A stretch of 64,000 nucleotides of DNA from Amphiscolops sp. MND2022 (GCA_964187785.1 OZ076409.1:9364001-9428000); one strand, 5' to 3'. Shown: positions 19,701 through 34,700, counted from the first letter of the stretch. The notes: generated by a model not told the origin, from the sequence alone. Made by a program: numbers and translations.

Positions 19701-22700
19701 CATGTAAAGTAAGTTAGTCTGTTATTGTTCTGTACTTATTTGTTCCGTTGTTTCAAGGTAAAAAGTCAAAACTTTCGTCAAAGAATTCACCTCTTTCCGG
19801 AGACTTTATTTTTCAACTGAAAAATGACAACTAAAAGTCAGAAGAGAAAAGCTGTAGCTGAGCTAAATTTTGGAGATTTTGAAGCCTCTGTAGCTGAGAA
19901 AAATCCTCCTGAACACCTTATAGCAAGTTCTAGCAAGTCTCCTAGAATACAACCTGAGAACTTAAACGAGATAAAAACGTCTCTGAGGAAAGAGATTATG
20001 TCTCATTTAGCAAAGATGTTAGCTGAAAACCAAAACGAAGTGCTAAAAAAACTCATAGCACCATTGAATAAAAGTCAACAAGTCCGTCTGAATAACCAGG
20101 ATTCTGATTCTGTGCCTGAGAACACCTCCGTAGCCAGAAGGTCAATGCCTGGTAAAACAAATGCGACTAGCTCCAAAACTACACCGGTAATTGTCCTAAC
20201 AATCATTGTTCAAGAAGCCTGTCAACATTACCAAGTCAATCAAGATTTTACCCTGGAGCATCAAGTTGCTCTTAAAAAGCTGTATCCGCATTTGAAGACA
20301 TTCGAGGAACTTGCCGCCCTTTGTCGAGAAGATGTAAGAAATGAACCTCATTTCATGTGTCTTTTCTGAGGAAAATATCTATATAAAGCGGCCGCTTTCG
20401 AGGCTAGCAATAGCATGCGCAATGTCCGGAAATCAGCTGAAATGCCGGAATAGAATAATACAAAATATGTTTGTTTTAAGTCGAGCTATGCCGTGTTTCA
20501 GCTCATTTCCGGCGGTGGCAGTGCATCTGGCGGCAATCCTGATTCAGGATGGTTTTTGTTCAGGAGGCTTGTGAATATTACCGAATTAACGAGGTTTTTA
20601 CTTTCGAGCAGCAGGTTGCTTTGAAGAAGCTATGTCCTCACATGCTGACTTTCAAAGAACAAACGGCTCTTTGTCGCGATGATGTTAGAATGCAGTGATT
20701 CGTTTTTTTCGGAAGTTCCGTTGCTCACCAAGTGAAATAATAACCTGAAGAGGGTCAAACTTCATGTCGTTAATTCTTTTCAAAATTTTCTCGAGAATCT
20801 GGTATTTTTCAAAGGCAAGAAAACTATATTAGTGACAAGGTCGATGTATTAACCGTTCTGTCCCCGCCGGAAATCAGCTGAAACACATTTTGTGTCTATT
20901 TTGCTTGATTATGTAGTAACAGCATCAGGAGTGGAGGGCGTTTGTTGTTTTATTTGATTTCCGGTGGCGGTGGAACGATTGCCGGCAATGCTGATTCCTC
21001 TGTAATTGTTCAAGAGGCCTGTGAATATTACAGAATCAATCAAGATTTTTCCCTGGAACATCAGATTGCTCTGAAAAGCTGTATCCTCAAATGCAGACTT
21101 TCAAAGAACAAACGGCTCTTTGTCGAGAAGATGTTAGACCCTGCATATAGTCAATAGTCGCTTGAGTTAAAATGTCACTGTTGATAATGCTCTATCGTGT
21201 GTTCGCACCGTGATGTGAAAAAAATTTCACTCATTAAAACTCGTCCTTCATTCGAATGCGCGTTTTGCAATTAGTTTTTCGATGTTGACCACAACGTCAA
21301 TGCACTGCCGATCCACTGGGAATCAGATAAATTTAGGCATTACCGTTTTTTTCATAAATGAATTTTTCTGTGCTTCGAGTTTGAGATCTACCTGATGTTT
21401 CAGCTCATTTCCCTTGGCGGAAGTGGATCAAACGACACTGCTGACTCATTCGTTGAGGAAGCGTGTGAATATTACAGCGTTAACCAGGATTTCACCCTGG
21501 AGCACCTAAAGGCTCTGACAAAGCTGTTTCCGCATTTGCAGACTATCAAAGAGCTCACTACTCTTTGCCCTGAAGATGTTAGCCTAACCTTCAGACACTC
21601 TGGATTTTAAATTCTGAACGTTTAGTTTTTATTTAAACGTTTAGGGTACGAAAACAACGTGGTGTTATACGGTGCAATACCGAACCGATTCCTTCGGTTG
21701 ACAATGTCAATCAAACTTTGATCTTACATAGCCCTAAATGAGATTTATGTTTATATATATTTGTAAACATTGTGCTAGATCTTTCGTGCTAGAAATACAT
21801 CATTTAGTTACCGTTGAAACTAGAGAAAAGATCGTTTTGACATTGCTTTCTGTTCAAAGACATATTTTACAAAACATCGTTTTTACTACCTAACCAAGCG
21901 ATAGAACATGGCGCAGTCAGCAATCTAAATAAATAAACCAAGAAAACTGTATCGAAACAAAGAAAATGACAGAAGACAACAAAATCGAAGTACCGAATTT
22001 TGAAGCCACCTCAGACGGAAAGAGAATATTTACACCGAAGCAATGGCTTGAAAGATTTCGGCAATATACAAAGAGGAAACACAAGATGGACATTACCGAA
22101 CTGATACGGGGAGCCGAAATGACACAAACCGGTTGGTCCGGAAAAGAAACAGAAATCCAAGAAGACTTCATATGGGGAATCGGCCCCGAAGCATTATACC
22201 AAATGACACGGGCAGAATATAAAACCGAACCTGACAAAATAGCGGTAAAAGACTTGATCCGATTATTCAATGAATACTTCCTACCGAAACGAAACACCTA
22301 TCATAACCGGGGAGAATTCTTCTGGACAAGACAAACCGAATCCGAGACACCAGAAGACTTTTGGCGGCGATTGATAGAAATAGAAAAAGAATGTGCATTT
22401 GAAGGAATAACAGCCGAAGATTTATTGATTTCAAAATTCATGACCGCAATTACGGACACGAAACTTCGGGATAAACTAATGAAAGAAAAGAAACTCGAAC
22501 TGAAAAAGACAATCGAAATGATTAAACAGAACACATATGAAAGAAAGAATCGAAAAAACACAATACCGGAAGCCTTGATTTCACACCGAGAAAAAGAAAT
22601 AAAAGAAGAACCGATACAGAGAATGGAAAAATCTGATACAAGACCAAAGAACAAATTCACAAATGAGAAACCATGCAAATTCTGCAACGCACCGAACTGG

Positions 22701-31700: not shown

Positions 31701-34700
31701 TCGGGAAAAAAATCCCCAGAGGGCCCCCCTTCAATTTTTTTGCTGTTTTGCGACAGAATGTAACGGCAAGCTGTTATCGGTTGCTTAACACGTTAACAGA
31801 GGTGGAGGAACCTGCAGAAATGGGTAAACCGCTCGGGAAAGGCGCCCATCGCCACAGATCCATTTTGCCTCCAGGGGTAAGATACGTCCTGAATCCGTGG
31901 GTGCTTCACGAATACCGTCCAACCGGTCCTAGTCTTTTATTGCCAATAGTAACGGTCATCTTCCTGTGTCTCTGAAGACCACCGCTTAACTAGCAGATAA
32001 AAACAACGCCAAGATCAAGGTAAATTTTCCAATTCCAGGGTGACATCGGAATAACGTCTAAAATGCGGAAGAGTATCTAAATTAGCGCTCGCGCTAGTAA
32101 ATACAGCCAAAATCAATCAGAATACATGAAAACAGGCACAAATTGCGCAAACCACAGCGCTACAAGCTGGGGCGCTGGGACTCCAAGCACCAAATTGGGT
32201 TAATTAAACCAGAAGACTCATTTTGCTGGTTTCCGCTACATAAGGTAGCATAATGCTCAAATCTAAGAAAACCAGGGTTAGCACCTGAAAAAGAGTCTAT
32301 TTCAGAGTTTTCTCTAAGCGCTCAGGCTTCTCTGTCCTTGGTGTTCTCGCTCTTCGTCATGCTCGGTCCTCTTTGTGCATTGCAAATGGCGAAAACAGCA
32401 AAAAGAGCAATCACATGCTCAGTGCCACGTCACACGTCGAATTAGAAATTTTCAGAAAATTTCTGATATGTCAGTTTCAAAAACCGCTGTGCCAGAGGTT
32501 CCCGTTACAAAAGTTATCCAAAAAGAATTCCAGCTTACGGTGACCCAATTCATGGCGTAGTGTGAACTATTATTTCCGTCACGCCGACGTCGAAATATCC
32601 AAATTCGAGCTGCTCAGGTTCGCTTCCAAGCTTTCCCATTCCATTATTTCGTTTTCCGCGGGAATATTTCTGGTATCAATTATTAATTGATTGAATTCAG
32701 GCTGATTCCGAGGAATGCGAAGAGTGGAAAAATTTCCTGGACTCCAATTCTGACAAGAGCAACCCCATTGTGATCGCTGTTCAAGAGAAGTTCGATGAAA
32801 CGTGCGTTGAGGTTAGTTATTCTTTAATTGTTATATCCGAGTTCAACTGAAGCATATTTTTGGCCCTCAACTAAAAATTCAACTTTGTTGATTGTTTTTT
32901 TTTCCAATAGAGTCGACGATGTTCAGTTTAATTTTTTGTGGATTTTAAAAAGATAGAGCTTATGCACAGTGTATAACCACTCACAAATGTTAGCCAAATC
33001 AATCCAATAAATACTGCATCAGTTGAGCTCGGAAAGCTGCAATCTGAACTGAACTATTTCTCTCCCTCGGGTCGCCCTCTGTAACCCGATTGATTATTTC
33101 TGACTCTAACAAAAATCATTCCAAAAAAGTTTCTTTACGACTGCGATTGGATGAATCGTTCTACTTCCAAAAGAATTAAATTTATAGTTTGCTCCGTTTA
33201 TTTCCGAGTTAACGCTTTGTTTTCGTGAAGCAGTTTTGTATTCAGCAAAAGGCAGCGTATTGTGTAGCTTCCCATCGCCCAAAAATAAAAACTTTTCAAA
33301 TTGTAGTTTTTCTCTCATATCTTTTAAATACCAAACAAGCTCGGTTACGTGCGTTACTCTTGCCACGGTTGTCGATAAACATCGGTTATGATCCGTTTTC
33401 CTCTAATTTCTCTATGTACCCATTAAACTTCCAATTCGTCCCCAATTTAAGTGCTAATTAATACCTTTGCGATAATGTATCTGTAAATATTACATTTAGA
33501 GACAGGTACTAACAATTAACACCAAGTTTCATATCGATGTTGAGCGCTTCTCGTGATACTATTCCATTAGCTCCTCGGTGTTGTTCTCCTCACATTGTTT
33601 ACGTGTTTGTGCCTAGAATGAAGGCTTTGTATCTCAATCGCGTCGCATGGCCACTGATTCTGTTGACTGCGAAGCCGTTAGGTTGGCAATTGAACAATCC
33701 AGTAGTGAAGATCCCATGCTCCAGCAGGCACTGCAGTTTCTATATGACTCCAATTGTGGCAAGGTTATCTCTACTGAATCATTCGTGGAACTATTTCTGT
33801 TTGCTTTCCTGGTTGTAGGAAAAAACGCCCTAGGAAAAACGCCTCAGTGAAAAAGGCCTATATGAGATTAGTAAAAGAATTAATTAACATAACAGCAATA
33901 ATTACACTTGCGATAAGCAAGTGTTATGGGAAAGTGCGGGTGCTTTTTTTCCGCGCGACAACTTTCTCGTTTCAGCCCGCAAGTCGCATAATTCAGGCAT
34001 TCTTGGTCTAGTGGTAAGATGCTTGCTTTTTCAACCCAGAGGGTCCGTGTTCGAACCCGTGCGTATGCGCGTTTTTTTACAAGTAATCCGAAGCAGAAGC
34101 TTCTCGGCACTGAGACCCCCCTACCCTTTTCGGCTTTGTGAAACTTTTTTTCGAAGTTTTTTTAATGTCCCCAAAGGGTCTCCCTTCTTTATTTGATATT
34201 TTGCAACAGAACGAACGTTAAAACTTCCCAAAGGGTCTCTTCTTTCAACTTTTTCGGCACTATGAGACTGTTAAAAATTAGCATTTCTTTCGAAAGTTTT
34301 TCAGTCTCCAAAGGGTCCCCCTTCAATGATTTTGAAATTTTGCAACACAATGGATGTGAAAAAATCTCAAAGAGCCCCCTTTCACAGTTTTCGGCATTGT
34401 GAGATTTTTCAAAATGAATCATTTTTGTCTTAAAATTAGGTTTTCTCAGGCCCAGCACTCTATATCCAATTTTTGTTTTTTTTGAAGACAGGTGTTTTTC
34501 CTATGCGTTTTTTTTCTAATTTGTTTTCATCGAAGCCCCTCCTCAAATTTTACTAGAAACGAAACGTTTTGCGAGCATATAGGACTGCTCAAGGTTTTCG
34601 GCACTATGCGCCTTACCGGAGACCTTCATCATATAGTTTTTTTTGAAAAAAATCCTCAATTTTCTGTTTTTTGAAAGGTTTTCGGTTGAAAATGATGAGT

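Follow-up and report, generated by a model that had tools for sequence, protein, structure and literature searches.

A cathepsin L intron that probably carries a decaying partial copy of a CLCA-like repeat-exon array

Introduction

Why should the intron that separates the propeptide from the catalytic part of a protease gene contain a series of small, well-formed exons unrelated to the protease? We address this question for a 64,000-nt stretch of DNA from Amphiscolops sp. MND2022 (GCA_964187785.1, OZ076409.1:9364001-9428000; hereafter the window, with positions counted from its first letter), in which intron 2 of a cathepsin L gene holds, between 20202 and 33763, 14 units on the + strand that look like exons. 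An earlier note on this DNA had offered two readings of them. One was a variable cassette system with birth and death of exons as in Dscam-type arrays, the other a multi-exon gene of unknown family, separate and nested or in decay. The decaying-gene part of the second reading proved essentially right and the family can now be named as CLCA-like. The array is probably a partial segmental duplicate of the repeat exons of a CLCA-like gene, trimmed and interrupted by long terminal repeat (LTR) elements, that is eroding within the cathepsin L intron and is spliced out with it.

Origin of the array

The genome searched was a 1.07-Gb eukaryotic assembly. When the whole genome was searched at the DNA level with one unit of family A (21396-21583), seven places were found, four at the window locus and three on a single other contig, C13, and a protein search with a unit of family B (31243-31395) found five places, two at the window locus and three on C13. 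The earlier note had held that its reading would fail if the units were parts of a high-copy transposon. This can be ruled out with the units present at two loci only, and the high-copy element here is the neighbouring LTR element.

The relation between the two loci was resolved by a blastn comparison of the window with the reverse complement of C13:34465001-34505000. Window positions 20202-33899 (+ strand), from unit A6 to unit C2 and with the introns included, matched C13:34475967-34486589 on the minus strand in nine collinear blocks. The non-exonic DNA was 87.4% identical over 4245 aligned positions, with values of 0.846-0.929 for individual blocks. Because this match runs collinearly through the introns, the window array is a segmental duplicate at the DNA level and not a set of convergent peptides. 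The window has nothing that corresponds to units A1-A5, A10 and B5-B7 of C13. For A7'a and A7'b of the window (primes mark the window copies) the best alignment was to one and the same C13 unit, A7 (dS 0.73 and 0.52, respectively), and both were treated as paralogous comparisons.

Such a close match between two places in one assembly could also arise if a C13-like haplotig or a collapsed repeat had been misjoined into the cathepsin L intron. The window does contain one scaffold join, marked by its sole N gap (about 14602-14810), which lies inside an LTR-element remnant upstream of the array. From 20202 through cathepsin L exons 3 and 4 the sequence is continuous and free of N, however, and both edges of the intron align in the right order to a cathepsin L paralog elsewhere in the genome. 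The difference of about 12.6% from C13 in aligned non-exonic DNA, together with the presence or absence of whole units, indicates that the window copy is not an allele of C13. In addition, a 70-aa open reading frame (ORF) from a separate public assembly (P0009) was 98.6% identical to window positions 20945-21154 and 56% identical to C13. An assembly artefact thus appears extremely improbable. Two further ORFs from public contigs, P0006 and P0010, were 100% identical to C13. Another (P0005, 68 aa, on a 13-kb public contig) was by eye a near-match to A7'a (20502-20683) outside the frameshifted stretch of that unit and lacked the frameshift. On this comparison of sequences, the break in A7'a may be absent from another haplotype or assembly.

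The parent gene and its protein family

The array on C13 comprises 12 open A, seven open B and two open C units, and one further B-like unit that is degenerate. In the 20 units whose ends could be fixed (the donor of A11 could not) a pyrimidine-rich AG acceptor precedes the exon and a GT donor follows it, both in phase 0. The repeats of the parent are 37-65 residues long with two cysteines, are encoded as one repeat per phase 0-0 exon and follow the order A, B, C; the B units end in RRRRN, KRKRRN or SKRQ. Among the parental A repeats pN/pS was 0.12-0.29 (median 0.20, 21 pairs), which indicates purifying selection.

Profile and structure-prediction searches, which the earlier note had proposed for the peptides, were carried out to place the repeats. 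A profile built from 11 A units gave 20 matches at E<=0.001 among 1.84 billion representative proteins. The top two were long proteins, P0001 (2322 aa, E 2.7e-107, eight matched stretches) and P0002 (2484 aa, E 2.9e-59, five stretches). Fifteen of the other 18 were ORFs of 65-133 aa, and the first four that were looked up came from ENA contigs. The N-termini of P0001 and P0002 matched the Pfam CLCA family (PF08434; E 2.7e-63 and 5.2e-61) and a VWA domain. When the two sequences were read beyond these domains, A-, B- and C-type two-cysteine repeats and further repeats with cysteine pairs followed, and the C-terminal end was made up of a long region with a hydrophobic segment. The corresponding NCBI entries, XP_063727354.1 and XP_075247250.1, are uncharacterized proteins of two acoels, labelled as isoform X16 of Symsagittifera roscoffensis and isoform X23 of Convolutriloba macropyga. 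The isoform numbers hint at heavy alternative splicing of the repeat exons in these relatives. A literature search pairing acoels with CLCA returned nothing relevant. To our knowledge, vertebrate CLCA proteins have no such region of two-cysteine repeats.

Residues 55-2322 of P0001 matched, in order, 22 places in the genome, all of them on the minus strand of C13 from 34508805 down to 34428331; this search used a stricter first look, so that weak matches may be missing. By these matches, C13:34428331-34508805 (minus strand) holds a complete and intact CLCA-like gene of about 80 kb, with the CLCA_N and VWA domains, and the window array is a copy of its middle. The central array of this gene has at least 21 phase 0-0 exons, and its B types end in RRRR- or KRKRR-like stretches. 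A tblastn search of the window with P0001 and P0002 matched only A and B units and unit C1', and neither CLCA_N nor VWA nor the C-terminal part of the two proteins was found. The window fragment thus does not qualify as a CLCA-like gene and represents part of the repeat region of a member of the family. Its 5' limit at codon 17 of A6 and its 3' limit after C2, the intact state of the parent and the collinearity through introns are what a non-processed pseudogene fragment would show.

The repeat itself remained without a family of its own. A Pfam search of the 11 A units at E<=1 yielded scattered sub-threshold matches only, and none on units B1', B4', C1' and C2'. Unit A9' was modelled with AlphaFold2 from an alignment of 25 rows (mean pLDDT 81.2). 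The model had three helices, with the two invariant cysteines of the A repeat in the first and third, and these cysteines may form a disulfide. A Foldseek search of the model against PDB returned no match at E<=0.001. A protein atlas applied to a C13 A unit returned unnamed clusters (0.92-0.93) and a lead to hAT dimerisation (114-118 shared features), which was below the reliable level and was discarded. Overall the source of the peptide families that had been described as unknown is identified as an uncharacterised two-cysteine repeat, one per exon, of giant CLCA-like proteins, with named relatives found from two acoels only.

State of the exon-like units

The 14 units of the window belong to family A (seven), family B (five) and family C (two); one of the B units is degenerate in the window and on C13 alike and one is truncated. 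The earlier note had counted at least 12 units, with its numbers for A and C standing and its three B units to be raised to five. It had also reported that A copies 1-5 end at the same D|GT position. This was borne out, as the first five A units end in GAT|gt, and a direct-repeat analysis placed five A copies, starting at about 20186, 20536, 20986, 21430 and 27155, that have a ...tgtttcag|CTSATTTCC acceptor and the GAT|gt end in common.

Seven of the 14 units are open and retain both splice sites, with all 14 splice dinucleotides preserved. A8' (21404-21577) has 58 codons, an in-frame 6-nt deletion and ten replacements at positions conserved in the parent, and A9' (27123-27302) has 60 codons and differs from the parent exon at eight positions, six of them synonymous and two not. 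Among the open B units, B1' (29464-29622, 53 codons) ends in a ten-residue stretch directly before the gt, has a weak gaag acceptor and was matched by tblastn to residues 798-839 of P0002. B3' (30910-31059, 50 codons) lies between a ttttag acceptor and a gttagc donor and ends in RRRRD; B4' (31243-31398, 52 codons) ends in RRKRRN and shows a dN/dS of 0.15 against the parent exon. C1' (32701-32811, 37 codons), with two synonymous differences and no replacement, was matched to residues 982-1016 of P0001, and C2' (33617-33763, 49 codons) has an in-frame 3-nt insertion.

The remaining seven units, also on the + strand, are disabled. In A6' (20202-20333) the first 16 codons and the acceptor are gone, replaced by the end of an LTR, while the rest is open and the donor GAT|gtaaga is intact. 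A7'a (20502-20683) keeps both splice sites and carries +3 and -1 indels that shift the frame, and in A7'b (20954-21132) the acceptor CAG is changed to TAT and one nucleotide is deleted. An in-frame stop, a 1-nt deletion, the loss of the second cysteine and an unalignable 5' part were found in A11' (28226-28398). A12' (28691-28885) has two 1-nt indels, its second cysteine is replaced by Trp and its donor is displaced by a 23-nt insertion. B2' (29749-29890) is the unit that is degenerate also at C13, and in B8' (32510-32617) the first ~69 nt are either absent or cannot be aligned, and a GAG is changed to TAG.

These states partly revise the list of five open, frame-preserving two-cysteine modules in the earlier note. 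Its modules at 21404-21577, 27123-27302, 32701-32811 and 33617-33763 were recovered, and its split module at 27813-27871 and 27939-28065 was not. With tblastn at E<=0.01 neither CLCA-like relative matched the split module; its first part aligns to C13 DNA that is not classed as exon and its second part falls in the next aligned block. The statement that all other units carry stops or frameshifts was wrong for the three B units at 29464-29622, 30910-31059 and 31243-31398, which are open with intact AG and GT.

The host gene and its ancestral intron

The cathepsin L gene consists of four exons on the + strand. Exon 1 (10592-10727) contains the start codon, the signal peptide and the start of the propeptide and has a phase 1 donor. 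Exon 2 (11483-11709, its acceptor taken from the four-exon model) encodes the I29 propeptide, exon 3 (35339-35631) the start of the mature enzyme, and exon 4 (36930-37293), placed by translation and by the four-exon model, runs to and includes the stop codon. Pfam matched Inhibitor_I29 on exon 2 (E 2.1e-12) and Peptidase_C1 on exon 3 (E 2.1e-41). The translations contain CGSCWSFS in exon 3 and an 11-residue motif and NSWG in exon 4, which we take to represent the catalytic Cys, His and Asn, respectively. Joined together, the four exons form a single open frame of 339 aa in which an I29 propeptide domain is followed by a papain-family catalytic domain, as in cathepsin L. The earlier note had been right in placing a phase-0 intron between propeptide and protease, since both junctions, GAG|gtgagc (donor, 11709) and cag|CTT (acceptor, 35339), lie at codon boundaries, and right that direct splicing of exon 2 to exon 3 gives a normal procathepsin L. 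Most likely the cathepsin L mRNA is made by this 11709-35339 splice and the fragment is removed as intron.

A second cathepsin L gene at C1:89797001-89807000 (89.80 Mb), with an identical exon 2 peptide and an exon 3 peptide 94% identical, provides the state without the array. Its intron 2 measures about 2.2 kb and has an insertion of its own of ~1.8 kb relative to the window, and A-, B- or C-type units are absent from this paralog. Aligned to the window, the paralog intron covers 11767-11848 and resumes directly at 35087. Therefore the material from 11849 to 35086, about 23.2 kb, is inserted, and the ancestral intron was about 0.4 kb long. We attribute the growth of the intron from ~0.4 kb to 23.6 kb to transposable elements. 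Two cathepsin L proteins of relatives returned by the search were 349 and 337 aa long and 71% and 64% identical to exon 2. A Dscam-like cassette system is not supported by these data, given the descent of the units from a CLCA-like gene, the disabling of seven out of 14, the paralog without units and the ordinary length of the two cathepsin L proteins returned from relatives.

Transposable elements at the edges of the copy

The DNA upstream of the array (12365-20201, + strand) is the remnant of a 5'-truncated LTR element of ~16 kb, of which the 3' internal part and the 3' LTR are left. It was recognised by blastn to a full copy at C9:55534405-55550753 with LTRs of 2,210 nt that are 99% identical, and it is in this remnant that the gap of N lies. 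The 3' LTR terminates with ...CTAACA at 20201, and homology to C13 starts right after it, at codon 17 of A6. An ORF that begins within the LTR (ATG at 19824) reads on into A6', so that the frame 19821-20369 is open across the junction. Pfam assigned no family to the first 121 residues of this ORF, nor to a 263-aa ORF at 17123-17914. Genome-wide, the protein of this ORF gave 5798 candidates at the first look, 150 of which were scored. The ~16-kb element is very abundant, and in many copies the ORF starts inside the LTR and continues into the internal region over 471-498 aa.

The open frame across the junction raises the question whether the fragment could be a nested gene that is transcribed independently, for example from the upstream LTR, and would encode a short secreted or processed protein of two-cysteine repeats. 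In favour of this are the frame 19821-20369 itself, the intact donor GAT|gtaaga at its end and the phase 0 of all intact exons downstream. The next units after A6' are A7'a and A7'b, however, and both are frameshifted, so that ordered splicing would stop translation there. No signal-peptide exon of the parent is present (the tblastn searches with the two CLCA-like relatives hit repeat units only) and no terminal exon was found. Nor is an ORF leaving the LTR special, as many of the 150 copies that were scored have the ORF of this LTR open over 130-200 aa. On its 5' side the locus ends in an LTR terminus that lies within an exon, and the window contains no N- or C-terminal exon of the parent, which does not agree with a nested gene. 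We regard a nested gene as very unlikely on these sequence features.

The second interruption is a Ty3/gypsy-type LTR retrotransposon between A8' and A9' (21663-26979, + strand), with 246-nt LTRs that are 100% identical and a 5-bp target duplication, CGTGG; from these two features its insertion was very recent. Its single ORF of 1549 aa matched the Pfam families zf-CCHC, aspartyl protease, RVT_1, RNase H and Integrase_H2C2, and no integrase core family was among the Pfam matches at E<=0.01. On the 3' side a dispersed repeat of ~850 nt (33899-34751; direct-repeat families D4, D8, D10 and D12-14, 80-93% identity) starts where the homology to C13 ends. A second copy of it is located in cathepsin L intron 3 at 35910-36776, and pieces related to it occur at several places in the C13 stretch.

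The following order of events would account for these junctions. The stretch A6-C2 of the CLCA-like gene on C13 would have been copied, introns included and in sense orientation, into the ~0.4-kb intron 2 of cathepsin L. An LTR element would then have inserted into exon A6', and the 5' half of this element would have been lost together with whatever lay upstream of it. The Ty3/gypsy element would have inserted much more recently. Meanwhile the copy would have been decaying, with half of its exons disabled by now. This would be ordinary genome turnover, in which a gene fragment is copied into an intron and erodes.

Elsewhere in the window long open frames were noted at 659-2071 (-), 3892-4905 (-) and 6341-7312 (+), corresponding to 470, 337 and 323 aa, and these had no Pfam match at E<=0.001.

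Decay or use of the copied exons

Whether the copy is without function was assessed from its divergence from C13, with dN/dS calculated by the Nei-Gojobori method. Values of 0.62-1.35 were obtained for A8', B1', B3', A11' and A12'. At sites on which at least four of six parental paralogs agree, 13 replacements fell on the window lineage and two on the C13 lineage, ten of the 13 in the open unit A8'; this polarisation by the parental repeats is biased toward conserved, and hence replacement, sites. The window copy therefore appears to have evolved under relaxed constraint. The earlier note had named dN/dS near 1 among the family A copies as a sign against use. The outcome was divided, with the parental pairs constrained (the pN/pS range given above) and, within the window, A8', A11' and A12' high against C13 and A9' low (0.08).

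Several observations nevertheless weigh against simple decay of the whole copy. An open frame together with both splice sites is preserved in seven exons. With substitutions and frameshifting indels calibrated on the neighbouring non-exonic DNA, and half of the change assigned to each copy, decay at the rate of the flanks would leave about 1.1 of 12 exons intact. Of non-exonic segments of 111-180 nt, only 1-9% were without a frameshifting gap. We counted nine gap events in ~2.1 kb of exons (B2 excluded) against 99 in 4124 nt of non-exonic DNA, and the gap rate per lineage in exons was roughly one third of that in the flanks. Units A9', B4' and C1' had dN/dS of 0.08, 0.15 and 0 with dS of 0.17, 0.28 and 0.11, and this neutral-level dS argues against recent gene conversion of these exons, which look constrained in both copies. 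The seven intact exons pooled had a dN/dS of 0.37 (34 synonymous and 49 replacement differences), lower than the ~0.6 that by our arithmetic would be expected had the window copy been neutral throughout. For all six broken exons dN/dS was 0.28, and the sum over A6', A11', A12' and B8' came to about 0.5, again by our arithmetic and with the A7 comparisons omitted. These signals may stem from a lower indel rate in coding-like sequence, from constraint early in the history of the copy, from the chance or post hoc choice of three out of 13 exons, or from real use.

Real use could mean that cathepsin L mRNA takes up some of the seven intact phase 0-0 exons as alternative cassettes. Helical two-cysteine modules, some of them ending in RRRR or RRKRR, would then stand between the propeptide and the mature enzyme. 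The geometry would allow it, as the copy lies on the strand of cathepsin L, the host intron is in phase 0 and any subset of the 0-0 exons would keep the frame. The retention of all splice dinucleotides in the open exons, the low dN/dS with ordinary dS of A9', B4' and C1' and the excess of intact exons over flank-calibrated neutral decay are likewise compatible with it. On the other side, the units come from an unrelated gene and half of them are broken, so that inclusion of a broken unit would stop translation; A8' has accumulated its ten replacements at conserved positions; and the cathepsin L paralog does without the insert. The 20 proteins matched by the A profile also give no sign of it: the longest two are CLCA-like, Pfam does not place P0016 among the cathepsins and 15 are 65-133 aa long (P0019 and P0020 were unscanned), with the reservation that a chimera could hide under another cluster representative. 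Taken together, the sequences make the use of these exons as cathepsin L cassettes seem quite unlikely.

A middle course would be exon shuffling in progress, in which a subset of the exons (A9', B4', C1' and perhaps C2') is kept by selection, through cathepsin L or through chimeric transcripts initiated in the LTR, and the rest decays. The frame-compatible geometry and the three conserved-looking exons leave a small chance that some exons are used, and a similarly small one is given to this scenario. If true, it would represent a rare, datable case of domain acquisition by insertion of exons into an intron at the boundary between propeptide and enzyme. We continue to prefer the explanation of a partial segmental duplicate that is eroding and is removed with the intron. 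Either way the locus is of practical concern for annotation, as the seven foreign exons are frame-compatible and gene predictors could wrongly build chimeras of cathepsin L and CLCA from them.

Comparison with known systems

The window array resembles Dscam-type arrays in that homologous exons of similar length stand in tandem, on one strand and within one intron, with signs of birth and death. The exon variants of a Dscam-type array are all functional and stand in for one another in a segment of the host protein, whereas the units described here are foreign to cathepsin L, with matches to CLCA-like repeats and not to cathepsin, half of them are broken (seven out of 14 are intact) and the host protein is complete without them. 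Selector or docking elements, at which no search was aimed, were not seen. What the locus shares with exon shuffling by symmetric exons is the starting arrangement, namely 0-0 modules in sense orientation in a phase-0 intron at the domain boundary between propeptide and enzyme.

With the CLCA family (XP_063727354.1 and XP_075247250.1) the window shares the A, B and C units, which correspond, order included, to the repeats in the middle of these proteins, and it differs from them as a fragment without CLCA_N, VWA and the C-terminal transmembrane part. The closest likeness is to intronic non-processed pseudogene fragments. As in these, there is an intron-bearing partial copy of an identifiable parent with lost ends, with frameshifts, stops and lost splice sites, and with transposable elements that flank and interrupt it. 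The window array differs from them in its sense orientation, in its position in a phase-matched intron and in the symmetric 0-0 phase of all its exons, half of which could be spliced on paper and three of which look constrained.

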